The translations under genes were made by a program, and so were the position numbers. A stretch of DNA of 64,000 nt from Vulcanimicrobiota bacterium (GTDB lineage: Bacteria; Vulcanimicrobiota; Vulcanimicrobiia; Vulcanimicrobiales; Vulcanimicrobiaceae): contig CAWCIZ010000001.1 in assembly GCA_963795855.1 (NCBI GenBank), positions 416,001 to 480,000 on the forward strand, read 5' to 3'. Positions 31,170 through 50,725 of the stretch are shown in pieces. The notes under the pieces were generated by a model, which was given only the letters and a program-made list of their open reading frames with translations, made no database searches and had not been told where the DNA came from. Every line of letters starts with the position of its first letter. Positions within the stretch are counted from its first letter, which is position 1.

Positions 31170-32004
31170 GGCAAAACCTGCGCAGTTCACGCGGCCGCCG
31201 CACATCAATCCGAGCGTCACCGAGCAATGGCTGACCGCCTTTCTGCAAGACGAACTCATCGTGCGCCGCAGCATTCATCAGGCCGTCGTTGGGCTTTCCG
31301 GCGGCGTCGATTCCGCCGTGACCGCATTTCTCTGCGCCCGCGCGCTCGGTCCGAAGAACGTTCATGCGATTCGCATGCCGTACAAGACGTCCAGCGCGTC
31401 GAGTTTGAGCGACGCGCGGCTCGTCGTCGAAGCGCTCGGCATCCAGGAACACACGGTCGACATCTCCGCCGCGGTCGACGGCTATTTGCAAGGCGAGTCC
31501 GACGCGGATGCGCGGCGCCGGGGCAACGTCATGGCGCGTATCCGAATGGTCGTGCTCTTCGATCAGTCCGCCAAATACAACGCGCTGCCGATCGGCACCG
31601 GCAATAAAACGGAGCGGCTGCTGGGATATTTCACGTGGCACGCGGACGATACGCCGCCGCTGAATCCGATCGGCGATCTCTATAAGACGCAGGTGTGGGC
31701 GCTCGCGCGGCATCTCGGCGTGCCCGCGGCGCTCGTCGAGAAGGCGCCCAGCGCGGATTTGGAAGCGAACCAGACTGATGAGGCGGATCTCGGCATCACC
31801 TATGCGCGAGCGGATGCCATTCTGGCGCGCATGCTGGAAGGCTATTCCAACGATCAACTCACGGAGCGCGGCTTCGAACGCTCCCAGGTCGAACTCGTAC
31901 GGCGCCGCCTGGATGGAACGCATTGGAAGCGCCACCTGCCGACGACCGCGATGCTGACGAATACCGCAATCAACGAATTTTATTTGCGTCCCGTCGACTA
32001 CTAA
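31153..32004 (+). CDS. nadE: NAD+ synthetase (synthetase-only subunit)
   Basis: GLSGGVDS, GNVMARIRM, TGNKTE, DLYKTQV, APSADL..QTDE. Confidence 0.95.
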   Translation: MLPVVEAKPAQFTRPPHINPSVTEQWLTAFLQDELIVRRSIHQAVVGLSGGVDSAVTAFLCARALGPKNVHAIRMPYKTSSASSLSDARLVVEALGIQEHTVDISAAVDGYLQGESDADARRRGNVMARIRMVVLFDQSAKYNALPIGTGNKTERLLGYFTWHADDTPPLNPIGDLYKTQVWALARHLGVPAALVEKAPSADLEANQTDEADLGITYARADAILARMLEGYSNDQLTERGFERSQVELVRRRLDGTHWKRHLPTTAMLTNTAINEFYLRPVDY

Positions 32005-32005
32005 C

Positions 32006-33250
32006 ATGCCGTCGGTCGAAATTCTCGCCGTGGGGACGGAATTGCTTCTCGGGCAACTCGTCGATACGAACAGCTCGTACGTCGCGCGGTCGCTCGCGGA
32101 ATGCGGCGTCGACGTCTATGCAACGCATGCGGTGGGCGACAATCGCGCGCGAATCGCCGCGGCACTGCGAGCGGCACTGGATCGCGCCGACGGCGTGATT
32201 GCAACCGGCGGATTGGGGCCGACGATCGACGATCTCACGAAGGAAGCCGTTTGCGATGCCCTGGGCGTCGGCACCGAGGAGGACGAAGCGTCGCTGCGCG
32301 CGATGGAAGCGCTGTTCCAGCGTCAGGGCCGCACGATGCAAGAGAACAACCGCAAACAAGCGCAAGTCCCGCGCGCAAGCATCGTGATGGCGAATCCGAA
32401 CGGAACGGCGCCCGGCTTCATCGCAACGCGCGAGGACGGCAAATTCATCGCATGCATGCCGGGGGTCCCGCGCGAGATGAAACCGATGCTGCACGAGCGG
32501 CTCCTGCCGTTTCTGCGTGCGCGCTTGCACCTGACGGATGCGATTTACACGCGCGTTTTGCATACGATCGACATCGCGGAGTCGGAGATCGACCATCGCA
32601 TCGACGATCTGTTTCGAAGCCTGGAGAATCCCAAGATTGCCGTCCTGGCGCACGACTACCGGTGCGACGTGAAAATCATGTCGAAAGCGCCGTCGAAAGA
32701 GACGGCGCGCGCGCAGACCGCTCCGGTAGAAACTGCGTTGCTCGAGCGGCTGCACGGTCACGTCTACGCGTTCGACGAACAGACGTTACCCGGCGCGATT
32801 CACGCGTTGCTGCAGCAATCCGGTATGAGTGCCGCGGTCGCCGAATCATGCACGGGCGGTTCGATTTGCGCGGAGCTTGCGGGTATGCCGGGCGCTTCGA
32901 ACAGTTTCGCGGGCGGCGTGGTTGCGTACGACAATCGCGTCAAAACCGGTATACTCGGCGTGCAACCCTCGACACTCGAGCGTGCCGGCGCCGTCAGCGA
33001 AGAAACGGCGCTTGAAATGGTGCAGGGCGTTCGGGCAGCACTTGGCGCGGACGTAGGAATTGCGACCACCGGAATCGCCGGTCCGTCCGGAGGAACGCCC
33101 GGCAAACCGGTCGGTCTCGTGTGGCTTGCGGTCGGCAACGCCACGGGTATACGGACCGCGCAGCTCAACCTGCCGGGGAATCGGACGGCAATCCAACGCC
33201 GGGCAACCATAGCGGCGCTCGGTCTGCTCTGGCGTTTCTTGCGTTGGTAA
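32006..33250 (+). CDS. cinA: competence/damage-inducible protein A (molybdopterin-binding-like domain plus NMN deamidase domain)
   Basis: GTELLLG..DTN, GGLGPTIDD, AESCTGG, TGIAGP. Confidence 0.93.
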   Translation: MPSVEILAVGTELLLGQLVDTNSSYVARSLAECGVDVYATHAVGDNRARIAAALRAALDRADGVIATGGLGPTIDDLTKEAVCDALGVGTEEDEASLRAMEALFQRQGRTMQENNRKQAQVPRASIVMANPNGTAPGFIATREDGKFIACMPGVPREMKPMLHERLLPFLRARLHLTDAIYTRVLHTIDIAESEIDHRIDDLFRSLENPKIAVLAHDYRCDVKIMSKAPSKETARAQTAPVETALLERLHGHVYAFDEQTLPGAIHALLQQSGMSAAVAESCTGGSICAELAGMPGASNSFAGGVVAYDNRVKTGILGVQPSTLERAGAVSEETALEMVQGVRAALGADVGIATTGIAGPSGGTPGKPVGLVWLAVGNATGIRTAQLNLPGNRTAIQRRATIAALGLLWRFLRW

Positions 33251-33286: not shown

Positions 33287-34798
33287 GTGAAGCGCATGAT
33301 CGAACGGTCCCTCGCAGCCATTGCGGCCATCGCCATACCTTTGGCTTTTGCCTCGTGCGGCGGCGGCGGCGGTTCCACCGGCACGCCGACGGTACCGGTA
33401 CCGGTGCCGACAACCACGACGAATCCCGCTCCCGGCCCGCAGTCGGCCGATGCGTGTCCGACGAGCGGCGCAAGCGTCGCAATTGCGCGTGCGTCGATGC
33501 AAGGCGAGGCGAGGCGAATTGCCGCAAGCGCAGACAGAGGCGCACGGTACGTGCCCGGCATGGTCGTGTATACCGATAATCGCGGCGGCACGCGCGTCGA
33601 GTCCGTCGATCCCGCGCGCGTCGCGGGTGAAGTCGCGCGCTTGCACGCGGTGGCCGGCGTGCGCAACGTGCAACTCGCGCAGTACCGCCGATCTTTGTCC
33701 GTAACGCCGAACGATCCGTATTACGACGGGTTTGGACCCGGCGCGCCCTACTACGAGTCGAGCACTCAGCCCGGACAATGGGACATGCACGTCATGGGCG
33801 TAAGCGCTGCATGGTCGTCGGTAGAAAACGGCGCACCGATCGCAATCGTCGACACGGGCGTCGACGTCACGCATCCCGATCTCTCGGGCAAAGTCGTCTA
33901 CGCTCGCTGTTTCGTCACGTACCCAACGAGCGCGGCGCAAACGACGGGCTCGTACGTCACCGACATGGACGGACACGGCACGGACGTTGCCGGAATCGCG
34001 TCGGCCGATACGAACAACGCGTTTGGATTTTCCGGCGCCGGCTTCAACGCGCCGCTGCTGGCGTATCGAATCTTTCCGACGCCGCCGAGCAGCGGGTGCA
34101 CCTCGTCCTCCAAAAATCCGCAATGCGATACGACCGACGTGGACGAAGCCAGCGCGATAAACGACGCCGTCGCGCACGGTGCGCACGTGATCAATCTCAG
34201 CCTCGGTGCTCCTGGTCCGCTCTCGAACTGCACGGACACGCTCGAGGAGAATGCCGTCGAGAACGCGATTTCGCACGGCGTCGTCGTCGTCGCGGCATCG
34301 GGCAATGAATCGGCCAACCATCTCGATTGCCCCGCAGCGTATCCCGGTGTGATCGCCGTCGGTGCATCCGCGCTCAAAGGTTCCGGTAACGCCGTAAGCG
34401 AGGGCGTCGCGAGTTACTCGAACTGGGTGGCCGCCGCTGGGCCCGGCGCCGGCGGCGCGTATCTGGTTGCACCTGGAGGCGATCCGGCCGGATCCTCCGA
34501 CGCCGACGATCTGCATTGGATAGAGAATATCTATTCCAGCACCGCGATTGGCGGAACGGACTGCGCGTTGGACCAGGCGGGTCAATCCGGCGACTGCCGC
34601 GTGCTGATTGCGGGCACTTCGCAAGCGACGCCGCACGTGGCTGGCGTGGCGGCGCTGATGCTCGGACTGCGCCCGAACCTTACTCCGGCCCAGATTGCAG
34701 CAGACTTATGCGCGACCGCGACGAAGATCGGCGGCAGCAAACAAGGTTGTGGCCGTTTGAACGCGGCGGCTGCGGTGGCGCGAGCGGCATCGCAGTAG
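33287..34798 (+). CDS. S8 subtilase lipoprotein
   Basis: Lipobox FASC; IVDTG, HGTDVAG, ASGN, GTSQATPHV. Confidence 0.9.
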   Translation: MKRMIERSLAAIAAIAIPLAFASCGGGGGSTGTPTVPVPVPTTTTNPAPGPQSADACPTSGASVAIARASMQGEARRIAASADRGARYVPGMVVYTDNRGGTRVESVDPARVAGEVARLHAVAGVRNVQLAQYRRSLSVTPNDPYYDGFGPGAPYYESSTQPGQWDMHVMGVSAAWSSVENGAPIAIVDTGVDVTHPDLSGKVVYARCFVTYPTSAAQTTGSYVTDMDGHGTDVAGIASADTNNAFGFSGAGFNAPLLAYRIFPTPPSSGCTSSSKNPQCDTTDVDEASAINDAVAHGAHVINLSLGAPGPLSNCTDTLEENAVENAISHGVVVVAASGNESANHLDCPAAYPGVIAVGASALKGSGNAVSEGVASYSNWVAAAGPGAGGAYLVAPGGDPAGSSDADDLHWIENIYSSTAIGGTDCALDQAGQSGDCRVLIAGTSQATPHVAGVAALMLGLRPNLTPAQIAADLCATATKIGGSKQGCGRLNAAAAVARAASQ

Positions 34799-34822
34799 CC
34801 CGGCCGCGGCAAGGAGGGCGCG

Positions 34823-36463
34823 GTGCGAAAAATTCTGGCATTGATAGGCGTGCTCGCGCTGGGCGCGTGCGGTGGGGGTTCCGGCTCGAACGGGGGTCCG
34901 CCGCCTACGCCGCCGCCCACACCGACACCGTTGCCTACGAACGGCACCACCTCGCCGGCGTCGTTGCTGTGCACGACCTCCGGTGCGGCGCAATCGATCT
35001 CGCACCGTACGGATGCCGCGATTCCGAAGCGCGCGCCCGCCGCGGGCGTCAAAGGCGGACGTGTCCCGGGGCTAATCGAGGTAACCTACGACCGCGCGAC
35101 GTTTGCGCGATCGCAGAACGCGATACGGCAGATGCACGCGGGCACCGGCGCAACGCTGCAAAGAACGCTCGACTTTCCCGCCCTTGCGCACGTCGTGCAG
35201 GTCCTTCGCGTCGATCCCTCACGTGAAGATGCGATAATCCGAACCTTGCGATCGTCGGCACTGGTGCGCGGCGTCTCTGTTGGTGCGTATCGCCGCCTGC
35301 AATCGACGGACGCGACGTCGGCGTTTCCGAACGATCCGTTTTTCGACGGGTTCACGCCGGGCAACGTTCCGCCGTTGTACCAAACCGCATCGACGGGCGG
35401 CGAATGGGACACGCACGTCATGTGCGCGGCAAATGCATGGGCTTATGGTGAAAGCAACAGCACTGGAAAGACGTTTCCGGGAGCACTCGGCGGCACCGCT
35501 GCGATCGCCATCGTCGACACCGGCGCGGATCTGACTCATCCGGACCTGAACGGCCGCGTCGTGTACGCGGAAACCGATTTGAACGGCGTGGCGACGCCGG
35601 ACCTGGCGACAATGCACGACAACGACGGTCACGGTACCGATATTGCGGGCATCGCCGGTGCAGCCGGAAACAACGCCTTCGGTTTTACTGGCATAGCGTA
35701 TGCCGCTCCGCTCATGATTTTCAAAGTCTTTCCCGATCCGCCGAGCGGCGGATGCGCGCCGGGATCGACGAGTTCGCAATGCACTGCGCTCGGCTCGGAC
35801 GTCGGTCTCGCGATCGATGACGCGGTGAGCCAAGGCGCGAAAGTCATCAATCTGAGTTTAGGCGACACCTCGCCGGACACGGCCGAGGAGAATGCGGTTG
35901 CCGCCGCAATTGGGGCGGGCGTGGTGGTGGTTGCCGCAAGCGGCAACGGAAGTTCGGCGAATATCGGACAGCCGTCACTCGACTATCCCGCCGCCGATCC
36001 CGGCGTTATCGCGGTCGGTGCGTCGACGATCGACGATTCGAATCCATCGGCGATCGGCGAGAAAGTGGCGTCGTACTCGAATTACGATTCGGCGAACTCC
36101 GCGGCATGGGGCGTCGTGGCGCCCGGCGGCGATCCGGCCGGCAATAGCGATCCCGATGATTTGCACTGGATCGAGAACATCTATACCAGCACCGCGGCCG
36201 ACGGAACGTCGGGCGCCGCGTGCCGTCCGGATCCCGGCAGTTTGTCCGCCAACGATTGCCGCATCTTCATCGCCGGAACGTCGCAAGCGACGCCGCACGT
36301 CGCCGCGGCCGCGTCGCTTCTGCTCAGCGTCGGCGCGTCGGCAGCCTCGGTCCCCGGTTTGTTGTGTGCGACTGCGGTTCCGATTCCCGGCGGCAAGGCC
36401 GGCTGCGGACGCGTAGACGCGTACAAGGCGCTCGCGCGAGCGGTCGGCGATCCGAATCCATAA
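34823..36463 (+). CDS. S8 subtilase lipoprotein (paralog)
   Basis: AAGGAGG SD, lipobox LGAC; IVDTG, HGTDIAG, GTSQATPHV. Confidence 0.9.
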   Translation: MRKILALIGVLALGACGGGSGSNGGPPPTPPPTPTPLPTNGTTSPASLLCTTSGAAQSISHRTDAAIPKRAPAAGVKGGRVPGLIEVTYDRATFARSQNAIRQMHAGTGATLQRTLDFPALAHVVQVLRVDPSREDAIIRTLRSSALVRGVSVGAYRRLQSTDATSAFPNDPFFDGFTPGNVPPLYQTASTGGEWDTHVMCAANAWAYGESNSTGKTFPGALGGTAAIAIVDTGADLTHPDLNGRVVYAETDLNGVATPDLATMHDNDGHGTDIAGIAGAAGNNAFGFTGIAYAAPLMIFKVFPDPPSGGCAPGSTSSQCTALGSDVGLAIDDAVSQGAKVINLSLGDTSPDTAEENAVAAAIGAGVVVVAASGNGSSANIGQPSLDYPAADPGVIAVGASTIDDSNPSAIGEKVASYSNYDSANSAAWGVVAPGGDPAGNSDPDDLHWIENIYTSTAADGTSGAACRPDPGSLSANDCRIFIAGTSQATPHVAAAASLLLSVGASAASVPGLLCATAVPIPGGKAGCGRVDAYKALARAVGDPNP

Positions 36464-36495
36464 AAAAGGAATCGCCGCACGTCCGCGGCGATTCC
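36462..36495 (-). terminator. Rho-independent terminator between convergent genes
   Basis: Perfect 11-bp stem GGAATCGCCGC/GCGGCGATTCC with a T6 tail on the minus strand. Confidence 0.85.
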
Positions 36496-36517
36496 GGGAT
36501 TTCGCACGGAGAGGTAA

Positions 36518-37528
36518 TCAGAAGAAGCAGCCGTGCGTCGCGTTCGAGTATTCGGGTTGAATCAGGTACTGGTGTCCGTTTAGATTCTCGTACGCGCGAT
36601 AGCCGATGCACGTGTCGCCGATTTCATATCCGAAGTTGTCGTTGTACCAGCCGCTTCCCGGATCGGGGTCCGAGATTGCTTCGGATTGTTCGTGCGAGAG
36701 CGCGCTCGCAGTGTCGTCGATCGGCGTCGGGTTCGGCGTCGTCAGTCCCGGGAAATCGTCGCCGCAGCCCGGGGTGTGCTGATACGGTATCACGGTGAAC
36801 AGCACGTGCCCGATGTCGGAGAACGTGATGCTGCCGTGGTAGGCGCAGAACGTAAACGTCGGCGGGTTATCCGGGGAATAGCACGACGTCGTCAGGTCGA
36901 TGCACGTGTCGAGCCCCTGCGCCAAGAAGAGATTGTAGGTATTGCCGTATCCCGTCGCCTTCGTGTGCGCGGCAGCGGCGTGCAGGACTGTGAAAAGTTC
37001 GTTCTGCGAGATGACGTTGGAAAATGCCGCAAGATTCACGCTGTACGTGTACGGATAGACCGGATAGCGATTGCTCGCCGACGCGCCGGTGTACTGATCC
37101 AGAACGTGGATGAACGAACTGCGGCTGAAATTGGCTTGGAACGTTTGAGGCGTTCCGACCGCCGCGGCAGTCGTGTCGATGAAGACTTCATGCTGCAGCG
37201 ACGCCGGAAGCACGGCGCCGCCGTGGTAGTTCACGTCGACGGGATAGACGGTTGCCATCGCCTTGCGCACGGTGCCCTTTTGCACCGGCAGGACGTGGTA
37301 CTTGAACGCGCTGTACGACGGAAGCGCCGCGACCATCGACCGGGTAATATTGAGCGTCGTGGAACCGCTCGACGGAGCCGGCTGCGAGAGCGCCGGCTGC
37401 TGCGGCGCGGCGACTTGAGGCAGCGACGAATTACCGCCTCCGGAACACGCGGTCAGCAGCGATGCGATACATGCAGCGGCAAACGCGCTGCTAAAACCAA
37501 CGCGAATGCGAAGCGTCTTGGAGTCCAT
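36518..37528 (-). CDS. lipoprotein with PHI-1/EXORDIUM-like domain
   Basis: Lipobox LTAC; YHGGAVL, FCAYHG, SHEQSEAISDP, GWY, EIGDTC; GGAGG SD. Confidence 0.65.
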   Translation of the reverse strand: MDSKTLRIRVGFSSAFAAACIASLLTACSGGGNSSLPQVAAPQQPALSQPAPSSGSTTLNITRSMVAALPSYSAFKYHVLPVQKGTVRKAMATVYPVDVNYHGGAVLPASLQHEVFIDTTAAAVGTPQTFQANFSRSSFIHVLDQYTGASASNRYPVYPYTYSVNLAAFSNVISQNELFTVLHAAAAHTKATGYGNTYNLFLAQGLDTCIDLTTSCYSPDNPPTFTFCAYHGSITFSDIGHVLFTVIPYQHTPGCGDDFPGLTTPNPTPIDDTASALSHEQSEAISDPDPGSGWYNDNFGYEIGDTCIGYRAYENLNGHQYLIQPEYSNATHGCFF

Positions 37529-37622: not shown

Positions 37623-38657
37623 TTAGGAAGAACGGCGCGCGCCGTACCCGATGGACTCAAGGACGCGTTGCGTCGCTACGGCGTCGGCGAAAGTCGGGAC
37701 GGCACTCGTGCCGGTGCGGATCTGCTTTGCGAATTCGTCGAGCAGTTCCATGATGAACGGCACGTGCCGATCGACCGACGAAAAGCGCGCGTACGGCGAA
37801 GGCTTCACCTCGAGTTCGTTCGTTTCTTCGTCGTCGACGCTGAACAGGCGCATATCGTCGAAGTCCGTTCCGCTTGCTACGGCCGTCCGATTTTCGCCGT
37901 GCGCGGCAAGCGTGAAGGATTCGATGGAGGTCGTTGCGTCGACGCTCACGCGAGCAGTAATGCCGTCACCGTAGTCGATGATCGCCCAGCACCCGTCGTC
38001 GACCGTGCTCGTGAACGTTCCTTGCGCGTCATCGCGCCGCGGATTGGCCGTCCGAAGAAAGCCCGTGCTGCGAACCGGTGCCCGGCCCGCGAGCCAGTTC
38101 GCGCCGTCGATCAGGTGCGAGAGCAGCGCGCCCGCCATCCCGCCGCCGCAGTCGCGATCGAACCACCAAGAGCGCGGCCGTTCCACTTCGGCGCGCAGAC
38201 GATTGGAAAGCTGCGTCATTTCGATTTCCCGCAACGGCGCGATGTGGCCGTTTTCGACGAGCTCCTTCACCGCGAGCCGCTGCGGAACCCAGCGAAACTC
38301 GTGCATGACGGCCGCTGCGGTTCCGGCGCGCAGCGCCGCGGCCTGCATATCCTCCGCCTGCGCGACGTCCAGTGCGAACGGCTTCTCGCAGATCACGTGT
38401 TTTCCGGCTTCAAGGGCTGCCGTGACGTCCGCCTGATGCGTGAACGGCGGAGCGGCGATCGAAACGACGTCGACGTCCGCGCCCTCGAGCAAATCCCTGC
38501 ACGTTTTGAACGCGCGCGGAATGCCGCGCTCGCCCGCGATGCGCTCGGCGTTGTTGGGCGATGCGAGCGCGACGACTTCGAATTCGGAATGCGCGGTGAA
38601 CGCGGGCAGATGTGCGCGAACCCCGAAGCCGGCGCCGACGATTCCTACTTTATACAC
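37623..38657 (-). CDS. Gfo/Idh/MocA-family oxidoreductase
   Basis: GIVGAGFG, AGKHVICEKP, GGGMAG..HLID. Confidence 0.9.
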   Translation of the reverse strand: MYKVGIVGAGFGVRAHLPAFTAHSEFEVVALASPNNAERIAGERGIPRAFKTCRDLLEGADVDVVSIAAPPFTHQADVTAALEAGKHVICEKPFALDVAQAEDMQAAALRAGTAAAVMHEFRWVPQRLAVKELVENGHIAPLREIEMTQLSNRLRAEVERPRSWWFDRDCGGGMAGALLSHLIDGANWLAGRAPVRSTGFLRTANPRRDDAQGTFTSTVDDGCWAIIDYGDGITARVSVDATTSIESFTLAAHGENRTAVASGTDFDDMRLFSVDDEETNELEVKPSPYARFSSVDRHVPFIMELLDEFAKQIRTGTSAVPTFADAVATQRVLESIGYGARRSS

Positions 38658-39940
38658 GCGCTGATGACGTCCACCGCGCGGAAGAGTTGCTCCTGCGAGA
38701 TCACGAGCGGCGGCGTAATGGAGACGACGTTGCCTTGCGGGCCCGCTTGCAGCAGGATGACGCCCGCTTTGAGTGCGTCCTTGACGACGCGTTCGGCGGT
38801 TCGCGCGTCATCGAATTCGACGCCCCACATCAGTCCGAGCCCGCGTACTGCCGCAACTTTGCCGTCGGCGCGCAGCGCATCCAGACGTCCGCCGAGCATG
38901 CCGCCAAGCCGCGCTGCCGCCTGCGGCAACTGCAAACGTTCGATTTCGCCGAGATTTGCGAGTGCGGCGGCGCAGCCCATCGGATTTCCGAGATACGTCG
39001 ACGTGTGCAGTGCCTCGCCGGGCGATTCCGGCCACACGTCCATGATCGCCGGACGCGCGACGATCGCAGAGATGGGAAACCCGTTCGCCATCGCTTTTCC
39101 GATGCAAAGGATGTCGGGCACGACGCCGTCGTGCTCGCACGCGAACAGCGCTCCGGTTCGTCCGAAACCGGTATAGATTTCGTCGACGATCAGGAGCAAG
39201 CCCAACGAATCGCAGATGTCGCGAAGTCCTTTGAGGTATCCGCGCGGCGGCACGATGCAGCCGCCCCGGCCTTGCATCGGTTCCACGATCACCGCGGCCA
39301 AGTCGCTGCGCGCGGCAAGCGCGTCTTTCGCCTCGCGCAACGCCGCGGCGGCCCCTTCGTCGGCGAGCGCCGGGTTCGCGCGCGGATACTCCAAAAAAAC
39401 CGCGTTGTCGGGGACGAACTGTGCGAACGGTTCGCGAAACTTTGGAATGCCGGAAACCGCGAGCGTCCCGAGCGAAAGACCGTGATAGGCGCCGGAATAT
39501 GCGGCAAACGAACTTTTGCCGGTCGCGAGCATTGCGGTCTTGAGTGCTGCCTCCACCGCTTCGGCGCCGGTCGATGCGAGAAACGTTTTGCTCAAGTCGC
39601 CGGGTGCGATGTTCGCGAGCGCTTCCAACAGTCGCACTTTCACTTCGGTCGGGTGGACGTCGCCCATGCCGTGCATCAATCGGACCGCCTGATCGTGAAT
39701 CGCCGCCGCGACGTACGGATTACAGTGACCGGTATTCGCCACGCCGAACGCGCCGGTGAGATCGATGTAGCGGTTGCCGTCCACGTCGGTGACCGTCGCG
39801 CCCGAGGCTGATTCCCAAAAGATTGGAAAGTCGGCGTCGACGAAGGTGACGTTTCGCGATTCGAACGCGCGAAGCGCGGGTGCGAGCTCGCGCGATCGCG
39901 GTCCCGGCACCGATGTGCGGATGTCCTCGAAATCCGTCAA
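38645..39940 (-). CDS. class III PLP aminotransferase
   Basis: DVDGNRYID, GAEAVE, YHG, EPMQGRGG, DEIYTGFGRTG, PDI..GKAMANG, HTSTYLGNP. Confidence 0.93.
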   Translation of the reverse strand: MTDFEDIRTSVPGPRSRELAPALRAFESRNVTFVDADFPIFWESASGATVTDVDGNRYIDLTGAFGVANTGHCNPYVAAAIHDQAVRLMHGMGDVHPTEVKVRLLEALANIAPGDLSKTFLASTGAEAVEAALKTAMLATGKSSFAAYSGAYHGLSLGTLAVSGIPKFREPFAQFVPDNAVFLEYPRANPALADEGAAAALREAKDALAARSDLAAVIVEPMQGRGGCIVPPRGYLKGLRDICDSLGLLLIVDEIYTGFGRTGALFACEHDGVVPDILCIGKAMANGFPISAIVARPAIMDVWPESPGEALHTSTYLGNPMGCAAALANLGEIERLQLPQAAARLGGMLGGRLDALRADGKVAAVRGLGLMWGVEFDDARTAERVVKDALKAGVILLQAGPQGNVVSITPPLVISQEQLFRAVDVISACIK

Positions 39941-41167
39941 AGCGTCTTGTCTATCCAGCGAACGAAGTGGACGATACGCGCGCGACCGCCGTGATCTCCC
40001 GCAAGCGGCGGGTGCTGCAGATCGCCGAAGCGCGTCAAACGCACCGCGCCTGCCCGCAGCGCGGCGTCTACCACGTCCGCGCGATCGGAAGAAATGGCGA
40101 AGCCTTCCAACGGCAACTCATGCCGGCGAACATACGCGACGGCGTCGGCCGGCCCATCTACGGCGACGATGCCGATGGTCCGAGGAAGAAACGGCGGCGC
40201 TTCGGACGGCGGTGCGTCGGCCATCACCGCGTATTCGGTCGCCGTGCCGGCAAAGACCGCGCCTTGTCCGCGCAGCCGCTCGAAAAGCGGCGAGATTGCG
40301 GCGCTGAGCGATCGCTGCCGCGGCCGCCGGATCGCGGCTGCCCACGGGAAACTCCACGTTCGCTTCTTCGATGCGCCGCGCGAGCAGTTCGCCGAATTGC
40401 GGGATCGACACGCATCCGCCGCGCTCGGCAAAGAGCGCGTGCAGCGAGAGACAGCCTTCGGTCTCGTAGAGCACGAGGTCGCGAGCGGCGCCGCGCGCGA
40501 CTGCCGACGCCGTTGCTTCGGACGCGAGCGATTCGCGCGTCACATACCCCGCGCTCGCGCGCGACCCATATCCGACGAATGTTGCGCCCGGAGCGAGCGA
40601 GGATCGAATCGCCCCAAGCGTATCGTCGCTGCCGAACGCAGCGACGACGTCGAACATGCGCAAATCTCGAGCGTTCTCCTCGCTATGCGACCATGCTTCG
40701 GCGCGTGCCGCCGCGCCGAATTCGGGTAGTTCGTGAGCCAGCGTGGTAAAGAACTCACGCAAGAGCGCGTCTTCGCGGTCTTTGACCACGACCTCGCATT
40801 TCGCACAGAGTGCGAATATCGAGGGAACGATTGCAACGCCGATCGTCGTGCGGCTGGAGATCACGCAAACGCTTCCCACCGGCGCTGCCCATGCATCGGG
40901 GCGGTTCGGACGCGGCGTAAAATCGTCGAGAATTTCGAGCGAGCCGAGTTCGCTGCAAATCGTGGCCCGCAAGTCTTCGCGTGTGATGGAAAAGAAGAGG
41001 CGGTCGAGCGCGTAGTCGACGACGGGGGCCGAGTAGCCGGTGCGCTCCGCGATGCGAGCCGTTACGCGCACGCGCGGCGGAAAATCGGCGTCGTTCCAGC
41101 GCTCCGCGCAGTCGGCGATGGCGTTTACGATCTTGTGCGCGGGTACGCCCGACAGCGCGGTCGTCAT
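39937..41167 (-). CDS. LuxC-like acyl-CoA/acyl-protein reductase; frameshift near 40270
   Basis: ALDH-like fold; AFGSDDT, YGSRAS, DLVLYETEGCLS (catalytic Cys position), C-terminal GDLQHPP..HGG. Confidence 0.8.
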
Positions 41168-42255
41168 GCCTTCGAGAGCGCGCGCAATTGTTCCGAGTCC
41201 AAGGAACACCCGCGCAGCTCCGCGCCGCTCTCGCGGCCGATGAGGATGATTCCATCGCCGGAGGCGACGCCCAAGTCCCCGGTTTGAACGGCAATGCACG
41301 ACGACCGGTTGCCTAGGTCGACGTGGACGAGCGAACCGACGATTCCCTCCGGGAGCGTTTTCCCATCCGGTCCGACGACGCGCGCGCGCAGCCACGGCGG
41401 CGGCACCTTGACGCGCGGCTCTTTCGCATCCCCGGTGCGATCGTAATACTGACTCGTCAATTCCGTCATGCCGTATTCGGCGACGATGCGCTCGAACGGA
41501 ACATTGAAAAGGCGCGCGAGTTGCGCGTAGAGTTCGCCGCGTTCGACGACTCGCGTGCGTCCTTTGAATCCGCCGGTTTCCATGATACGCGATCCGGCGG
41601 CGAGCGGAAGCGTCGCGATCCCGCGGTCCGCTAATTCGTCGAGAAGGTTGACGAATGCGAAGGCCGTGCCTGCGACGCAAACTGCAGCGGAAACACTCCG
41701 CGCTTCCATGATGAAGCGGTCCGCATGCAGCACATCGCCGTCCAAATACCACCCGTCGTTTCCGTCGCCGAAAGTTTGAGAGACCTTACGCATCATGTAT
41801 CCGAGCGAGGACTGCGGCCGTTGTTCCGGGTTTGGAACCAGCAGCAGATAGCGCAGCGGCGCCGCGTCACGCAGCAGCGCGTCTTGAAAACCGGCGAGAA
41901 GCGCCGCATCGTACAGCGTTCGAGTCTCCATGTAATGCTTGCCGCCCACGCCTTGCGTCGTACCGCTGGTTTCGAACGCGAGCGCCGCGTCGGCGGGATC
42001 GAACGTACACAGAGCCGCCTCTTTGAACGCGCCGGCCGGTACGGGCGGAATCGCTTCCCAATCGCAAGGCAGTGCGTCGGGCGTTACGCCGATCGATGCG
42101 CAGTACCGTGCGTACGGCGCGTTATAACGCAGTTGATGCGCAAAGATGCGCAACGCGAGGTCGCGGAAATCGGGGACGCTGCGCCGCTCGATGCAGTGCA
42201 GAATTTCGGCATCGAGTCCATCCGCTTCGCTGCGGTACGCGTCTGGCGTACTCAC
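41164..42255 (-). CDS. LuxE-like acyl-protein synthetase
   Basis: IPPVP..FK, FETSGTT, METGGFKG, EYGMTELTSQ, QTGDLG, GR..AELRGCS (acyl-accepting Cys). Confidence 0.88.
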   Translation of the reverse strand: MSTPDAYRSEADGLDAEILHCIERRSVPDFRDLALRIFAHQLRYNAPYARYCASIGVTPDALPCDWEAIPPVPAGAFKEAALCTFDPADAALAFETSGTTQGVGGKHYMETRTLYDAALLAGFQDALLRDAAPLRYLLLVPNPEQRPQSSLGYMMRKVSQTFGDGNDGWYLDGDVLHADRFIMEARSVSAAVCVAGTAFAFVNLLDELADRGIATLPLAAGSRIMETGGFKGRTRVVERGELYAQLARLFNVPFERIVAEYGMTELTSQYYDRTGDAKEPRVKVPPPWLRARVVGPDGKTLPEGIVGSLVHVDLGNRSSCIAVQTGDLGVASGDGIILIGRESGAELRGCSLDSEQLRALSKA

Positions 42256-42738
42256 CGCGATAGCGCGCGGCGCCGGCTGGTGATGAGGCCGCTGTTCAGA
42301 CCGCTCGTTGAGAGACCGCCCGAAAGGCGAGCCCATTCCACTTTTATGCAGCGGTCGACGACGACTGCCAAACCCGCCTCGTCCGCCATGCGGATCGCCT
42401 CTTCGTTGACGATGCCGTACTGAAACCATACGGCTTTTGCGCCGGCGCCGATTGCGTCGCGAACGACGGCTACGACTTCGCTCGGTTTGCGAAACACGTC
42501 GACGATATCCGGCGCGCCCTTTTCTTGGGCGTACGCGGCCAGCGAGGCGTACGCCTTGACGCCGTCGATGCCGGTGAGCGTCGGATTGATGGGCGCGACG
42601 TCGAACGGCGTCATCGTGCGCAGATAGCTCGAACACCGTATAGCTCGGACGCAGCTGATTGGCGGATGCGCCAATCATCGCGACGGTTTTGCTGCGTTCC
42701 AAGAGATTGCGGCGTCCGGAAACGCTATCCACGATCAT
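42252..42738 (-). CDS. CoA-binding protein (YccU-like); frameshift near 42631
   Basis: VAMIGAS..RPS, PINP, DIVDVFR, VWFQ, DRCIKVE. Confidence 0.85.
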
Positions 42739-44003
42739 TGCGCGCCGCCGTTCGAGAGCGCTGCAGCCGCGCCGGCACCTTCATGCAGAGCCTTGTCGAG
42801 GTCCCAAATCAAATCGTCCGCATCCTCCAAGCCCACGGAAATCCTGACCATTCCCGGGCTGACGCCGGCTTTACGCATCTCATCGTCGGTCAGCTGGGAA
42901 TGCGTCGTGGAAGCGGGATGGATCACCAGACTCTTCGTATCGCCGACGTTGGCGAGATGCGACCACAGTTCCAGCGCGTCGATGAACCGCCGCCCCGCTT
43001 CGCGGCCGCCGCGCAAGCCGAACGTGAAGATCGACCCCATCGCGGGTTCGTTCACCCATTCCACCTCGTCGCGCGTCCGAAGAAACGCCGCGATTTTTCG
43101 CGCGTTCTCGACGTGCGCCTTCATGCGAATCGGCAGCGTTTCCAGTCCGATCAGCAGCAGCCACGCATCCATCGGAGACATTTGCGATCCGACGTCGCGC
43201 AGTACTTCCGCGCGCGCGCGCATCAAGAACGCGTACTCGCCGAACGTTTCGGTGAAGACCTTGTCATGATAACCGGGGCTCGGCTGCGAGAGCAGCGGAA
43301 ATTTTCCGCTGTCCCATGGGAACTTTCCGGATTCGACGGCGACGCCGCCGATGACGGTTCCGTGGCCCGAGATGAACTTGGTCGCGGAGTGCAGCACTAC
43401 GTCGGCGCCGTGTTCGATCGGCCGGAAAAGCGCGGGGGACGCGAACGTGTTGTCGACGACGAGCGGAATGCCGGCAGCGTGCGCGATCTGGGCAAGGCGG
43501 CCCACGTCGGCCAGCGCGCCCGACGGATTGCCGATCGTTTCCGCAAAGAGCATCTTCGTGTTCGGCGCGATCGCGGCGCGAATGCCGTCGTAGTCGTCGA
43601 CGGGCACGAACGTCGTCTCGATGCCCATGCGTTTGAGCGTGATGCCGAATTGCGTTACCGTGCCGCCGTAAACGTTTTGCGAACTGACGATGTGGTCGCC
43701 GTTTTGCGCGAGCGTCAGCACGACGGCGAGCTGCGCCGCGAGTCCGCTCGAAAAAGCGATCGCGCCGAGGCCGCCTTCCAAACTCGCGACCCGTTCCTCG
43801 AACGAGGCGACGGTCGGATTGCTGATGCGGCTATAGATGTGCCCATAGCTGCGCAACTGAAAGAGCTCGGCCGCCTGCTCGGTCGAACCGAAGACGAAAG
43901 CCGCCGTCTGATAAATTGGAGGGACGCGCGACCCCGTCACGGGATCGGGCGTCGTACCCGCGTGAATGGCGCGCGTGGAGAAGCCGAACTGCCGGTCTTG
44001 CAT
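42735..44003 (-). CDS. metY: O-acetylhomoserine sulfhydrylase (aminocarboxypropyltransferase)
   Basis: PIYQT, YSRISNPT, VDNT, HSATKFISGHG, HLANVGD..HPASTTHSQL. Confidence 0.9.
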   Translation of the reverse strand: MQDRQFGFSTRAIHAGTTPDPVTGSRVPPIYQTAAFVFGSTEQAAELFQLRSYGHIYSRISNPTVASFEERVASLEGGLGAIAFSSGLAAQLAVVLTLAQNGDHIVSSQNVYGGTVTQFGITLKRMGIETTFVPVDDYDGIRAAIAPNTKMLFAETIGNPSGALADVGRLAQIAHAAGIPLVVDNTFASPALFRPIEHGADVVLHSATKFISGHGTVIGGVAVESGKFPWDSGKFPLLSQPSPGYHDKVFTETFGEYAFLMRARAEVLRDVGSQMSPMDAWLLLIGLETLPIRMKAHVENARKIAAFLRTRDEVEWVNEPAMGSIFTFGLRGGREAGRRFIDALELWSHLANVGDTKSLVIHPASTTHSQLTDDEMRKAGVSPGMVRISVGLEDADDLIWDLDKALHEGAGAAAALSNGGAQ

Positions 44004-44065: not shown

Positions 44066-45349
44066 ATGGGCATGACCCTGACCGAGAAGATCCTCGCGCG
44101 CCACGCGGGGCTGACTTCGGTCGAGCCGGGCCAGATCATCAACGCCGGAGTGGATTTGGTGCTCGCCAACGAGCTTTCCGCGGCGGTGGCGATCGGTGTG
44201 ATGCGCAACATCAAAGGCGCGAAGCGTGTTTTCGACTCGGAAAAGATTGCGCTCGTGGAAGACCATTTCGTTCCGGCGAAGGACGCGCAGTCGGCGAAAA
44301 TTGCGAAACTGATGAAAGACTTCGCGCGCGAGCAAAACATCAAGCACTTCTTCGACGTCGGCCGCGGGGGCATCGAACACGTCGTGCTTCCGGAGGAAGG
44401 GCTCGTCGCTCCGGGCGAGCTGATCGTGGGCGGCGACTCGCACACGTGCACGTACGGCGCCTTCGGCGCGTTCGCGACGGGCATGGGGTCGACCGACATC
44501 GCCGCTGCGTTCCTCTTGGGTGAAGTGTGGCTGAAAGTGCCGGCGACGATCAAACTGATCTACAACGGCCGGCTCGGCGAGATGGTCTACGCGAAAGACG
44601 TGATGCTAAAAACGGTCGGCGTGCTCGGTATCGACGGCGCGACGTATCGTGCAATCGAGTACCACGGCAGCACCGTCGACGAGCTTTCCATCACCGGTCG
44701 CATCACGATGGCGAACATGGCGATCGAAGCGGGAGCGAAGAACGGCATCTTCCATGCCGATGCGAAAACGATTGCGTTCGTCAAGGAGCGTACGAGCCGC
44801 GATTTCGTCGTCGAACGCGCGGATGACGATGCGGTCTACGAGCGCACCGTCGAGATCGACGTCGACGGGCTCGAGCCGCAGGTAGCGTGCCCGCACACGC
44901 CGGACAACGTGCATTCGATCTCCGAGGTCACGAACGAGCGCGTCCCGCTGGATCAAGTTTTCATCGGCTCGTGCACCAACGGGTACATCGAAGATCTCCG
45001 CGTCGTCGCAAAGATGTTCGACGGTAAGAAGATTTCGCCGAACCTGCGCGTGATCGTGAACCCGGGCTCGCAAAAAGTCTGGATGCAAGCCGCGCAGGAA
45101 GGCATCCTCACCACGCTGGCATCGGCGGGGTGTGTAGTGAACACGCCCGGATGCGGCGCGTGCTTCGGCGGCCATATGGGCACGCTGGGCGACGGCGAGC
45201 GGTGCATTTCGACGACGAACCGCAATTACGTCGGACGCATGGGATCTCCGAAAGCCGAAGTCTTTCTCGCGTCGCCCGCTACGTGCGCCGCATCGGCTTT
45301 GGCCGGCGTCATTACCGATCCGCGCACGCTGGCTCCGGTGGGGGTGTAA
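44066..45349 (+). CDS. leuC: 3-isopropylmalate dehydratase / homoaconitase-family large subunit
   Basis: DHF, DSHTCT, GSCTNG, CGACFG, STTNRN..GRMG; AGGAG SD. Substrate not certain. Confidence 0.85.
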   Translation: MGMTLTEKILARHAGLTSVEPGQIINAGVDLVLANELSAAVAIGVMRNIKGAKRVFDSEKIALVEDHFVPAKDAQSAKIAKLMKDFAREQNIKHFFDVGRGGIEHVVLPEEGLVAPGELIVGGDSHTCTYGAFGAFATGMGSTDIAAAFLLGEVWLKVPATIKLIYNGRLGEMVYAKDVMLKTVGVLGIDGATYRAIEYHGSTVDELSITGRITMANMAIEAGAKNGIFHADAKTIAFVKERTSRDFVVERADDDAVYERTVEIDVDGLEPQVACPHTPDNVHSISEVTNERVPLDQVFIGSCTNGYIEDLRVVAKMFDGKKISPNLRVIVNPGSQKVWMQAAQEGILTTLASAGCVVNTPGCGACFGGHMGTLGDGERCISTTNRNYVGRMGSPKAEVFLASPATCAASALAGVITDPRTLAPVGV

Positions 45350-45351
45350 CC

Positions 45352-45864
45352 GTGGAAAAATCGATGAAAGGCCACGCGCACAAATACGGCAAGAACGTCG
45401 ACACGGACGTCATCATCCCGGGCAAATACTGCAACATCATCGATCCTGCCGAACTCGGCAAGCACGCACTCGAGGGACTCGACGCCGACTACACGGCGAA
45501 AATGAAGCCCGGCGACATCATCGTCGCCGACTCGAACTTCGGATGCGGCTCCAGCCGAGAGGTCGCGCCGATTGCGATCAAAGGGTCCGGAACGTCGGCG
45601 GTCATCGCGAAAAGTTTTGCGCGCATTTTTTACCGGAACGCGCTGAACATCGGTTTGCCGATCTTCGAATCGCCGGAAGCCGTCGACGGTATCGAAAGCG
45701 GTGATGAAATCGAAGTCGAGCCCGCCGGCGGCGTGATTCGCAATCTCACGAAAGGCACGACTTATAACGCGGCAGCGTTTCCTCCGTTCATGCAGTCGCT
45801 GATCGAGGCCGGAGGATTGCAGCCGTACGTGGAGCGGCGCCTGGCGGAGCGCGCCCGTGTGTGA
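45352..45864 (+). CDS. leuD: 3-isopropylmalate dehydratase / homoaconitase-family small subunit
   Basis: [27 protein letters not shown]. Confidence 0.85.
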
Positions 45865-47069: not shown

Positions 47070-47188
47070 GTCCAGTGAACGAACCCCCGAGTGCAAATGT
47101 TGCGCTCTTCACAATTCGACGGCATGGCCGGAACATACCGGTTCAGAAGAACTATGGTGCACTACTGCGACACGTTGAGGAGTTTCCT

Positions 47189-48568
47189 TTGAGAACCCGT
47201 CTCTTAGCGATTGGGCTGGCTGCCATATCGGCGGCCCTCGTTGCTTGTGGGGGCGGCGGCGGTACCACCGGCACGCCGCCAACGCCCGTAGCGACCGCGA
47301 CTCCGACTCCGACACCCGCGCCCACGCCTGACAACGCGTTCGGCTGCGTCGGCCAAGCGCCATTCGCCATCTCGCGGCGCACCAGCAGCCTCGTGCCGCG
47401 GCCAATAACTTCCGGCGACTCCTTCGCCTACGCCGGGTCCCTTCAGGAAACGTACGCTCAGAGTTCGCCGTGCCCCGAGCCGACGTCGACCTCGGCGGCG
47501 GCCGTTTCCATGCAAGTGACGGATTCGGCGACGAGCGCGCCCGGCGGCGGCAGCGCAACGGCTTCGACCTCCGCTGAAACGGACGCGTTCGCCACACACA
47601 CGAGCGATTCGTCGACGACGCAGCTGCTGCAGCTCAGCGGCAGCGCGCTGCTGCTCTACTCCACGAATTCCAACGACGGTACGGGAAACTCGATCGCAAC
47701 TGCGTACGGCACGCCGCAAGAGATCGACGACCTTGGCGCGGGCGGGTCGTGGAGCAACAACCCGGCGGCCACCGTCGCGGAAAGCCTTTCGGACGGGAGT
47801 TCGATTGCGCGCACGCTCGCCTCCGACGGATCGTACACCGACACGCAAACCTACTCGAACGGCGCGACGGCGGTAGCCACGGTGAACGGCGCTGCGAACG
47901 GCAAGCCGCTCGACGGATCCGGCACGTACGTCTTCGCCGGCATAACGTTTTCGTACGCGGCGCCCGCCGGCGGGAACATCCAACTCACGATTTCGAGCCC
48001 CGGAAACGCCTCGAAAACGCGCACCTTCCCGGCATGGTTTACGAAACCGTCGTCGAGCTACGTGAGCGACGCGTTCGCGGACAATGGAACCAAGCCGTTC
48101 GATCCGTCGTGCGGCAGCGTCCCCGCATCGATTGGAACGAGCGGAACGCAGATCGTCGAGACGTACAACGTCCTCGATCCCGTCCTTGGTTACACCGAAA
48201 CGCGCACGACGACGTCGTACGACGTGTCGGGATACGGCCCGGCTTGCGTCACGATCGCGGACGTCGTGAACTCGTTTTACGATTACTCGGACGACACGAC
48301 GCGCGTGGATTACCAATCCCAAAACGGCCAGCCGAACTCGGTCGATACGATCGCCGAAACGCTGAGCATGCAGAGTGCGGCTTGCGGCAGCGGATCTGCG
48401 CCTTGCGCGCAGCTGCGCCGGGCCGAAGATACGCGGCCGGTTTCTCCCGGCGCGATCCGAGCCGCCGTGGCGGCCATCGAGCATACGCGCGCCGTGCAGC
48501 GCGCGGCACGTCTGCAAGCGCTGCACGCGCTCGCACGGCAATTCGTCCAGAAAGGATCGCTCCGATGA
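47189..48568 (+). CDS. Ser/Thr-rich lipoprotein of unknown function
   Basis: GAGGAG SD, TTG start, lipobox LVAC, PT linker; ATGA overlap with the S53 gene. Confidence 0.75.
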   Translation: MRTRLLAIGLAAISAALVACGGGGGTTGTPPTPVATATPTPTPAPTPDNAFGCVGQAPFAISRRTSSLVPRPITSGDSFAYAGSLQETYAQSSPCPEPTSTSAAAVSMQVTDSATSAPGGGSATASTSAETDAFATHTSDSSTTQLLQLSGSALLLYSTNSNDGTGNSIATAYGTPQEIDDLGAGGSWSNNPAATVAESLSDGSSIARTLASDGSYTDTQTYSNGATAVATVNGAANGKPLDGSGTYVFAGITFSYAAPAGGNIQLTISSPGNASKTRTFPAWFTKPSSSYVSDAFADNGTKPFDPSCGSVPASIGTSGTQIVETYNVLDPVLGYTETRTTTSYDVSGYGPACVTIADVVNSFYDYSDDTTRVDYQSQNGQPNSVDTIAETLSMQSAACGSGSAPCAQLRRAEDTRPVSPGAIRAAVAAIEHTRAVQRAARLQALHALARQFVQKGSLR

Positions 48569-50725
48569 ACAAGCGATTGATCGCAGCGGGCGCAGCGATG
48601 GCGCTTTTGGCGACCGCCGCTTGCGGCGGACACGGCGGAACGCCGTCGGACTCGCAGTTGCCGCCCCTCGCCGGCTCGAGCGGTCCTTCCGCATTCGATT
48701 GGGGCAAGAACGAAGTCGACGGTGCGACCCTTCTCGGTCCCGCGCAACTCGCGCACATGCAGGCGATGGTCGTGATGAACGCTCCCGGTGCGCAGGCTCT
48801 CGCGAATTACGCGCAGCAGGTCAGCGATCCGGCGTCGCCGGCGTATCGTCACTATCTCATCCCGGCCGAAATCGGCGCGCGCTTCGGCGCGAGCTCGCAA
48901 ACCTACCAAAAGATCGCAAATTATTTCGTCGGTAACGGCTTGCGCGTTGCCGGGTGGCCGCAGCGCCTTTCGATGAGCGTTGCCGGTTCGCAATCCGCGA
49001 TGGAATCCGCCTTCGGAACCAAGTTTGGGTTGTACGAAAAGGACGGACAGCACTTCGTCGCGCCCATGACGACGCCGCATTTCGCGACGGCGTTGCCGGT
49101 GAGCGCCGTGGAGAATCTCGTCACGCTGCATCCGCTGCATGACTTCTTGATTCACTTGCCCCCACGCGCCGGAGCCGGAACGAATACCGGATACTCGCCG
49201 CAGCAGATCCGTAACGCATTCGACTTTTCCGGCGCTTACAGCGCCGGCTACACCGGCAGCGGCATCACCGTCGGCATCATCGGCACCGGCCCAATCGACG
49301 TCAATCGCGGCACCTGGTGCGGCGATCGCGATCTCGCGGCATTGCAGGCGTTGTACGGCAACGTGAGTGCCGCTACCGTTTGCGAAGCCAACGTTACCCC
49401 GACGAGCGTCTCCGCGGGACTCGTCGCCTCGGGGATTCCAACCGCAGCTCCGGCAACGCCGAATCCGCATGCGACGCCTGCGCCCAATCCCGGCCAATCG
49501 CCGACGTCCGAGTTTCCATACTCGGGCGACTTCACGACACCGCCGCCGGTAACGGACGGATGCACCGGCTCGCTGCCGAGTTGCAATCCGGAAGACGGCG
49601 AAGCGCAGCTCGACACGCAGCAAATAGCAACGCTCGCGCCCAGTTCGACCGTAAACTTTTACCTCGCTTATAACGCATCGGACTGCTTCGTGTTCTATCC
49701 GAACGCGTGCGCCTCGCCGGCGCCGAGTCCGCTTCCGTCCGGTTTCTCGAACTACGGTCAGCCGCAAATCGGCATCGTCGAAGCCGATGCGGAGATCCAG
49801 CAAGCAATTGCCGACAACAGTGCGGACGTGGTTTCGTTGAGTTACGGCGGCGGCGAACCGCAGCTCGTCGGCTCCGAATTCAACTCGTCGGGCGTTGGTT
49901 TCGTCCCTGAAGAATTTGCGGCACTCGCGGCGGAAGGCATCGCCGTTTTCATTTCATCCGGCGACAGCGGCTCCGCGGAATGTTCCGGAAGCAGCGGTCC
50001 GCTCGCGGAACAATGCGCGGCATACCCTTCGGGCGACGTCAACGTGACGTCCGTTGGCGGGGTGAATGCGCCGATCAACGAGTTCGGGCAGACTCACGAA
50101 TAACGTGACGGCATGGGGCGTGACGACGATGCTGGGATCGGCGGGATCCGGGGGCGGCGTTTCGACGATCTTCCATGCTCCGTCGTGGCAACAGCAGGCC
50201 GTCGGCGCTTCGATGCGCACGCAGCCCGACGTGTCGATGCTGGGCGACCCTGACACCGGAGTAACGACGTACCAGGACGCCGGTTTCTCGGACGGCGGCA
50301 CGGGCCTGGTCGGCGGAACCAGCCTTTCCGCGCCGCAGATGGCTGCGATGTGGGCGCTGGTGCTGCAGGCCTGCAAAGCGTCGGTAACTTGCGCGACGGC
50401 GGGCGGCGCGCATCCATATCGCCTCGGCAATGCCGCGCCGTACCTCTACGCAATCTACTCATCGCGCGTGGCGTACCACGCGTTCACACCGCATCTTTCG
50501 TATGCGCAGACGTTCTACGACGTGCTGTACGGCTCAAACGCGATGACGCCCCCGGGCAGCGCCACGCCGGTGCCGGGAGAGAAGGCGATGACCGGATACG
50601 ACGAGGTCACCGGCGTGGGCGTTCCGTTTGCGGGGCACCTCATTCAAGCGGTGACCGGGCAGGTCGCGCCGTCACTCCGGCAAGCGGCGGCCCTTGCCAC
50701 GGCTGCTATAATGGAACGGCTGTGA
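48565..50725 (+). CDS. S53 sedolisin/kumamolisin-type protease lipoprotein; frameshift near 50087
   Basis: Lipobox TAAC, pro-domain ([12 protein letters not shown]), [27 protein letters not shown]. Confidence 0.88.
50704..50712 (+). promoter_or_regulatory. extended -10 promoter of rpmE
   Basis: Consensus TGCTATAAT 9 nt before the GTG. Confidence 0.65.

Follow-up and report, generated by a model that had tools for sequence, protein, structure and literature searches.

A LuxE–LuxC–aminotransferase triad proposed to replace QueC and QueF in the queuosine pathway of a class of Vulcanimicrobiota

We describe three adjoining genes, luxE, luxC and a class III aminotransferase (AT), on the minus strand of a 64,000-nucleotide stretch of DNA (the window) from a member of the Vulcanimicrobiota (Eremiobacterota). 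The encoded triad probably makes preQ1 from 7-carboxy-7-deazaguanine (CDG), replacing both QueC and QueF in the queuosine pathway. Four observations carry this reading: the gene content of the class, the catalytic residues kept in the enzymes, the linkage of the genes, and the gap left by QueC and QueF. As the pathway is otherwise present, the triad is proposed to fill that gap. The conversion of CDG to preQ1 is one of an acid to an aminomethyl group. By analogy with the known chemistry of the families, LuxE would adenylate CDG to CDG-AMP and load the acyl group onto its own Cys350, the mobile LuxE tail (residues 347–363) would hand it to LuxC Cys239, and hydride transfer at LuxC would free 7-formyl-7-deazaguanine. 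The pyridoxal phosphate (PLP)-dependent AT would then turn this aldehyde into preQ1, which would feed TGT, QueA and QueG. The adenylate–thioester–aldehyde relay is modelled on the LuxC–LuxE precedent of Photobacterium phosphoreum (PMC9157457) and the transamination on that of TabE/TabA (10.1101/2025.08.11.669332). Comparison of genomes is what points to CDG as the substrate, the aldehyde as the intermediate and preQ1 as the product.

The conserved triad and its enzymes

The first-pass annotation of the window had described six overlapping minus-strand genes as one operon, and reading of the open reading frames (ORFs) with Pfam and NCBIfam confirmed the run (44003–37623) and its overlaps, four of 4 bp and one of 13 bp with the starts chosen (Table 1). 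The conserved unit is nevertheless the luxE–luxC–AT triad and not the six-gene operon, since metY, the CoA-binding gene and the Gfo gene are patchy across families. LuxE is present in 57/61 relatives, among them all 44 of high quality, and is essentially single-copy. Forty neighbourhoods were examined, picked for long contigs (20 from the window's own family, three from a second and 17 from a third), and AT follows luxE in 39 of them across all three families; the remaining contig ends there. A LuxC-like ORF lies between luxE and AT in 20/20 second- and third-family loci. The link between AT and luxEC supposed from the window is thus found in other genomes. By comparison metY and the CoA-binding gene, which travel together, stand beside the triad in 19/20 own-family loci and in 0/20 loci of the other two families, while the Gfo gene is next to it in 18/20 own-family and 0/17 third-family loci, with a 23–30% Gfo homologue in all three second-family loci. 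The metY and CoA-binding genes are therefore neighbours on a shared transcript, as is, probably, the Gfo gene. In these neighbourhood tallies leuC was used for gene order only. The tallies of LuxE, lysA, proA, argC, QueE, the FolE2/MptA family and AT include the unpublished genomes G014, G025, G027, G034, G035, G048 and G059.

Natural fusions occur among the 21 long homologues scanned, including LuxE–LuxC fusions, Zn-dehydrogenase–LuxE fusions and a single AT–LuxE fusion whose AT part is 46% identical to the window AT. The Zn-dehydrogenase–LuxE fusions (P0298, P0309 and P0343) represent a possible acid-to-alcohol variant. The carrier-free acid–aldehyde–amine relay of the first-pass annotation stands on the 39/40 linkage and on the AT–LuxE fusion, although its amino-acid substrates do not. 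The overlapping gene run leaves no space for an acyl carrier protein, short ORFs outside the run being unscanned. The reported absence of luxA, luxB and luxD also holds, for the 64 pre-filtered window ORFs scanned with Pfam, the luxAB search being confined to the window.

Window LuxE matches PF04443 at 41 bits (cut-off 24.9) and window LuxC matches PF05893 at 111 bits. Profiles built from their relatives match chains E (E 2.6e-38) and A (E 3.3e-41) of the P. phosphoreum complex, PDB 7XC6, with Cys350 of the C-terminal LuxE GCS motif aligned and LuxC Cys239 on the catalytic cysteine. Lys231, Arg341 and Cys350 of LuxE align with Lys238, Arg355 and Cys364 of P. phosphoreum LuxE, and LuxC Cys239 with Cys296 of its LuxC, residues named as catalytic in PMC9157457; the LuxE motifs and both cysteines are hence intact, as had been read from the letters. 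Neither protein reaches its equivalog model (LuxE 33.7 bits against a cut-off of 550 for NF052244; LuxC, scored over its N-terminal 300 residues, 25.7 against 750 for NF052251). An AlphaFold2 model of LuxE has a predicted local distance difference test score (pLDDT) of 86.9, low at 347–363, and its closest solved folds are PaaK-type aryl-acid ligases. Window LuxE and a congener's LuxC are predicted to form a complex (0.86 versus 0.00 for the best control, 76% shared contacts, pLDDT at least 83), passing a mark reached by 51/78 solved pairs and 2/108 mismatched pairs, a pass that may simply reflect likeness to 7XC6.

The AT falls below every named NCBIfam equivalog cut-off (best 327 bits versus cut-offs of 552–639). 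Leu155 is invariant after the HG motif in 14/14 sequences, at a position where aligned GabT structures carry arginine. In GabT-, ArgD- and OAT-type enzymes the arginine after HG binds the substrate carboxylate. Among 12 further class III enzymes from the same genomes, seven retain it.

Queuosine gene content and deazaguanine linkage

Queuosine genes are otherwise well represented: QueE in 60/61 relatives, the FolE2/MptA family in 58/61, QueD and TGT each in 5/5 genomes, QueG in 13/13 and QueA in the window's own genome. The class QueE has QueE models as its best match and adjoins queD, and TGT belongs to the bacterial tRNA type (TIGR00430, 479 bits, cut-off 307), with Val233 in 4/4 sequences read and Cys158 in 3/4 by motif; some motif patterns, this residue reading among them, served as leads only. 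A type IA FolE was considered as the cyclohydrolase of the pathway and rejected (0/5), the FolE2/MptA family taking its place. FolK is fused to an MptA-type GTP cyclohydrolase at L375:1159-2712 (G000:C3), and folK runs divergently from the triad in both L341 and L350.

QueC above cut-off is absent from all 61 relatives and, like QueF, from all 94 class genomes among 151 sampled across the phylum at a completeness of 85% or more; two QueC-like matches in class genomes are weak and far under cut-off. The QueC and QueF searches were positive in 9/14 and 7/14 control reference genomes. The YhhQ importer is likewise absent from 5/5 genomes, QueT importers not having been searched. LuxE is present in 94/94 class genomes and the AT orthologue in 92/94. 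The 57 genomes outside the class hold no AT orthologue and four weak LuxE matches; 25 of them have QueC and nine a clear QueF. Three of the four weak LuxE matches were inspected and belong to a different LuxE–LuxC cluster without AT. It is therefore the lack of QueC/QueF that tracks the triad, a gap that was not among the options of the first-pass annotation. As the GTDB scan yielded this class alone, the queC/queF test is confined to the Vulcanimicrobiota phylum.

Further linkage comes from outside the class. Alignment of 40 distant representatives gave 80 metagenomic loci, of which 13 were set aside as class members by tree and gene order. AT lies beside luxE/luxC in 28 of the remaining 67, with 1.5 kb or more of upstream sequence in 14. 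In six of these 14 informative loci queE (four) or queG (two) lies directly upstream on the same strand, an IS200-like ORF sitting between at L277; queE was seen at none of the 23 loci that lack AT and have a flank as long. Three of these QueE proteins score above NCBIfam cut-offs, as do both QueG. L277, L283 and L326 are apparently one lineage, leaving about four independent cases. In trees, window AT shares a clade with the queE-linked ATs, and three queE-linked LuxEs make up the sister group of the window LuxE branch (support 0.93). Within the class, 14/19 third-family genomes (the unpublished G048 and G059 included) carry queE on the luxE contig at a distance of 15–27 kb, which is a weak hint.

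A phage contig (L355:3226-13987) carries queD, folE, a DpdA-like ORF (weak, E 0.006, below cut-off), queE, luxE, luxC and AT on one strand, a cluster of the deazaguanine DNA-modification type. QueC and QueF had no match over the 84 kb of this contig, which is estimated to be 56% complete. No LuxE was found in GenBank phages, nor in IMG/VR when the close alignment served as query; an IMG/VR match to AT (L356) was ruled out as an unrelated fragment.

The linkage evidence points to the deazaguanine pathway rather than to the exact reaction, and the triad could instead act on CDG that has been incorporated into tRNA or DNA, or yield another amine or an alcohol together with Gfo, while another enzyme supplies preQ1. 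Phages with QueD and QueE yet without QueC are noted in the literature and make other CDG derivatives, for example 7-deazaguanine (10.1101/2023.04.13.536721), and Gfo is next after AT in most own-family loci. However, a TGT of the bacterial tRNA type with Val233 kept, and the retention of QueA and QueG, which require preQ1-tRNA, argue against a role that does not involve preQ1, and the absence of Gfo from 17/17 third-family loci argues against a Gfo-dependent product. We consider such another reaction unlikely.

Several observations weigh against synthesis of preQ1 by the triad. The class-versus-rest pattern is a single phylogenetic contrast; neither QueC nor the triad is present in 32 of the 57 genomes from other classes, QueE being untested in those. 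The class QueE scores under all QueE model cut-offs (111 versus 240 bits), and one of the four TGTs has valine at the Cys158 position. No que gene lies beside the triad in this genome or at any of 80 class GTDB loci, and a que neighbour is absent at eight of the 14 informative outside loci. The queG-linked and phage ATs sit on another branch than the window AT, and LuxE identity separates the groups poorly, at 38–44% to que-linked proteins and 35–37% to those of thiamine pyrophosphate (TPP)-riboswitch type. In 28/80 GTDB loci, all of one lineage, luxE has no luxC beside it; the displaced luxE immediately follows rplQ, where the ribosomal alpha operon ends, in 8/8 inspected loci (Table 1), luxC and AT are still paired elsewhere in 5/5 such genomes, and all triad genes are retained despite the split. 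The class also has other wide gaps, with proA above cut-off in 2/61 genomes, proC in 0/5 and panD in 0/5.

Given both sides, we lean towards a wider view, with less assurance than for the reaction itself. The triad would be a preQ0-free second de novo route and the sole queuosine route of the whole class. It would also recur in unrelated bacteria, ATs having been recruited independently two or more times, and phages would have acquired it to modify their DNA. LuxE/LuxC pairs without luciferase would be mainly heteroaryl-carboxylate reductases, with the lux role a side branch.

Other candidate substrates

The first-pass annotation favoured aminoadipate, glutamate or aspartate as substrate, giving lysine by way of aminoadipate, ornithine or proline by way of glutamate semialdehyde, or aspartate semialdehyde. 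In the window's own family metY lies upstream and leuCD-type genes are divergent, proA is above cut-off in just 2/61 relatives, which together with the missing proC keeps the glutamate reading alive, and argC is absent from 19/19 third-family genomes and from this assembly. Against this reading, the genome has dapB-asd-ask-dapA, dapF and lysA, the usual routes to lysine (through diaminopimelate) and aspartate semialdehyde; lysA is above cut-off in 49/61 genomes; and argC is present in 27/61, most of them also with LuxE. Glutamate semialdehyde, a supply of pyrroline-5-carboxylate, would yield no proline without ProC. The AT has leucine in place of the carboxylate-binding arginine kept by 7/12 of the other class III enzymes compared, and the metY link is limited to one family. 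An amino-acid substrate is thus decidedly unlikely. The argument from metY to a primary metabolic role is not supported, although a housekeeping role as such is. Searches for lysine, ornithine and aspartate-semialdehyde gaps were negative, and the sole real gaps, proA/proC and panD, are unlinked to the triad.

The panD gap could in principle be closed by conversion of malonate through malonate semialdehyde to beta-alanine, panC being present. None of the loci examined links a pan or coa gene to the triad, and this is the least probable reading of those considered.

Reduction of a fatty acid to an amine or alcohol for a lipid, by LuxCE with a transaminase of TabA/TamH type, has enzymatic parallels. 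The sole characterised LuxCE uses myristate (PMC9157457) and TabE/TabA produce dodecylamine (10.1101/2025.08.11.669332), and the HGL motif of AT fits a substrate lacking a second carboxylate. It is all the same very unlikely, as it leaves the queE and queG links unexplained, the loci examined show no linked gene for an acyl carrier, LuxD or a lipid function, and the LuxC alignment stops about 30 residues short of the 7XC6 LuxC end, before the cleft-exit residues. The genome also has a separate PigE-like aminotransferase with an acyl-ACP-reductase-like ORF, at L371:6929-10123 (G000:C3) downstream of panC-coaBC, a possible fatty-amine route of its own.

Plasmid LuxE/LuxC homologues (about 36% identity) form operons of luxE, luxC and a short-chain dehydrogenase/reductase (SDR), mostly with transporters. 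A TPP riboswitch precedes the operon in 4/5 plasmid loci and in L344. The plasmids (L132–L136) are of Pantoea, Azospirillum, Priestia and Lactiplantibacillus, with NitT/TauT-type ABC or NCS2 transporters, and their operons, with that of L344, are candidates for reductive thiamine salvage. Such related pairs under TPP riboswitches suggest that the family serves cofactor-type pathways, and the resemblance of the plasmid operons to OarX clusters suggests heteroaromatic acids as substrates. By extension the triad itself might reduce and aminate a pyrimidine carboxylic acid to an aminomethylpyrimidine in thiamine-fragment salvage. The triad locus has, however, no transporter, no OarX-type SDR and no TPP riboswitch (no Rfam match in the window), TPP/SDR-type LuxEs branch separately in the tree, and the genome has a ThiC-like gene, so that this is a shade less probable again than the fatty-acid reading.

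Features of the locus and relation to known systems

Table 1. Genes and presumed surplus bases of the window, with linked loci elsewhere
Feature	Position or loci	Strand	Remarks
MetY-type O-acetylhomoserine sulfhydrylase	42735..44003	-	Cys/Met-type PLP enzyme; TIGR01326 557 bits, cut-off 495; neighbour, outside core
CoA-binding protein (PF13380, CoA_binding_2)	42252..42738	-	split by extra base 42630; neighbour, outside core
LuxE-like acid adenylase/acyl-protein synthetase, 363 aa	41164..42255	-	PF04443; core gene
LuxC-like thioester reductase, about 410 aa	39937..41167	-	PF05893; core gene, interrupted by one extra base
Class III PLP aminotransferase (AT), 431 aa	38645..39940	-	PF00202; Lys282, HGL replacing HGR; core gene
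Gfo/Idh/MocA oxidoreductase	37623..38657	-	Pfam/NCBIfam; accessory gene
Extra base in luxC	40270..40272		probable assembly error
Extra base in CoA-binding gene	42630..42630		probable assembly error
queE-AT-luxE-luxC	L277, L283, L314, L326	same strand	
queG-AT-luxE-luxC	L286, L299	same strand	
luxE behind rplQ	L196, L202, L204, L206, L212, L213, L239, L245		

Two genes of the run are split in this assembly, luxC and the CoA-binding gene, each by one unpaired surplus base relative to 3/3 congeners; both frameshifts are most likely single extra bases from assembly error. The first-pass annotation had marked them, at 40270 and 42631, for verification. The luxC frameshift does not appear to be real, as luxC is unbroken in 45/45 relatives that hold both halves, and a 189-nt contig (depth 3) from a public run equals 40227–40416 without substitution but lacks base 40271. 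Base 42630 lies outside the read coverage of two public runs and is judged by the congener comparison. Other housekeeping genes, tgt, queD, queA, queG, ask and argB, are also split in the assembly.

An Rfam scan of the window gave no match, and a promoter and terminator scan was at chance level. Divergent to the run is a small-type leuC/leuD pair (44066–45864), slightly below LEU2 cut-offs; this aconitase-family pair was rejected as a homoaconitase because it scores better as LEU2/leuD (isopropylmalate isomerase). A split nitrilase-domain gene, an NAD synthase and CinA (30268–33250) are frequently near the triad in the window's own family. The stretches 33287–37528 and 47075–50725 hold two tandem lipoprotein-like subtilases, a 336-residue ORF without Pfam match and an apparently split kumamolisin-like protease.

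Compared with P. phosphoreum LuxC–LuxE (PDB 7XC6; PMC9157457), the window pair belongs to the same two families, keeps the Lys/Arg pair and the carrier and catalytic cysteines, and is predicted to form a complex. It differs in that its LuxC is about 65 residues shorter, it is coupled to AT without luxABD in the window, and its substrate is probably a heteroaromatic acid. Like TabE/TabA and TamA/TamH (10.1101/2025.08.11.669332), the triad would combine a thioester reductase of aldehyde dehydrogenase fold with a class III transaminase to give a primary amine. Those systems depend on an acyl carrier protein, handle C12 chains and belong to a secondary-metabolite cluster, whereas in the triad the activator itself would carry the acyl group and the genes are single-copy core genes. 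The oarX clusters, which hold acyl-CoA synthetase genes, contain homologous LuxE/LuxC (35–37% identity); they lie under a TPP riboswitch and close with an SDR and a transporter, while the triad locus has AT and none of those. Their LuxE/LuxC-type pair is proposed to reduce a carboxylated heterocycle, a function that is unproven, five candidates having been ruled out in Corynebacterium (PMC11223231).

The triad and the canonical FolE–QueD–QueE–QueC–QueF route share their proposed start, CDG, and end, preQ1, and the genes up- and downstream are present. The canonical path runs through an amide and a nitrile; that proposed for the triad would run through a thioester and an aldehyde, at a cost of about one ATP, one NADPH and an amino donor. 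The accessible parts of PMC6884629, PMC13329287, PMC13740343, PMC12041015 and 10.1101/2023.04.13.536721 describe no route other than QueC/QueF. The searchable literature, which leaves out most subscription papers and so may miss a prior mention, holds no description of a triad route and no paper that joins 'deazaguanine' with 'LuxE'. The enzyme families and the pathway are already known, and it is the route connecting them that would be new. If true, it would provide a function for three unannotated core genes of the class, add 7-formyl-7-deazaguanine as a metabolite and offer a carrier-free carboxylate-to-amine cascade for heteroaromatic acids. The prediction of queuosine producers and auxotrophs from genomes would change with it.

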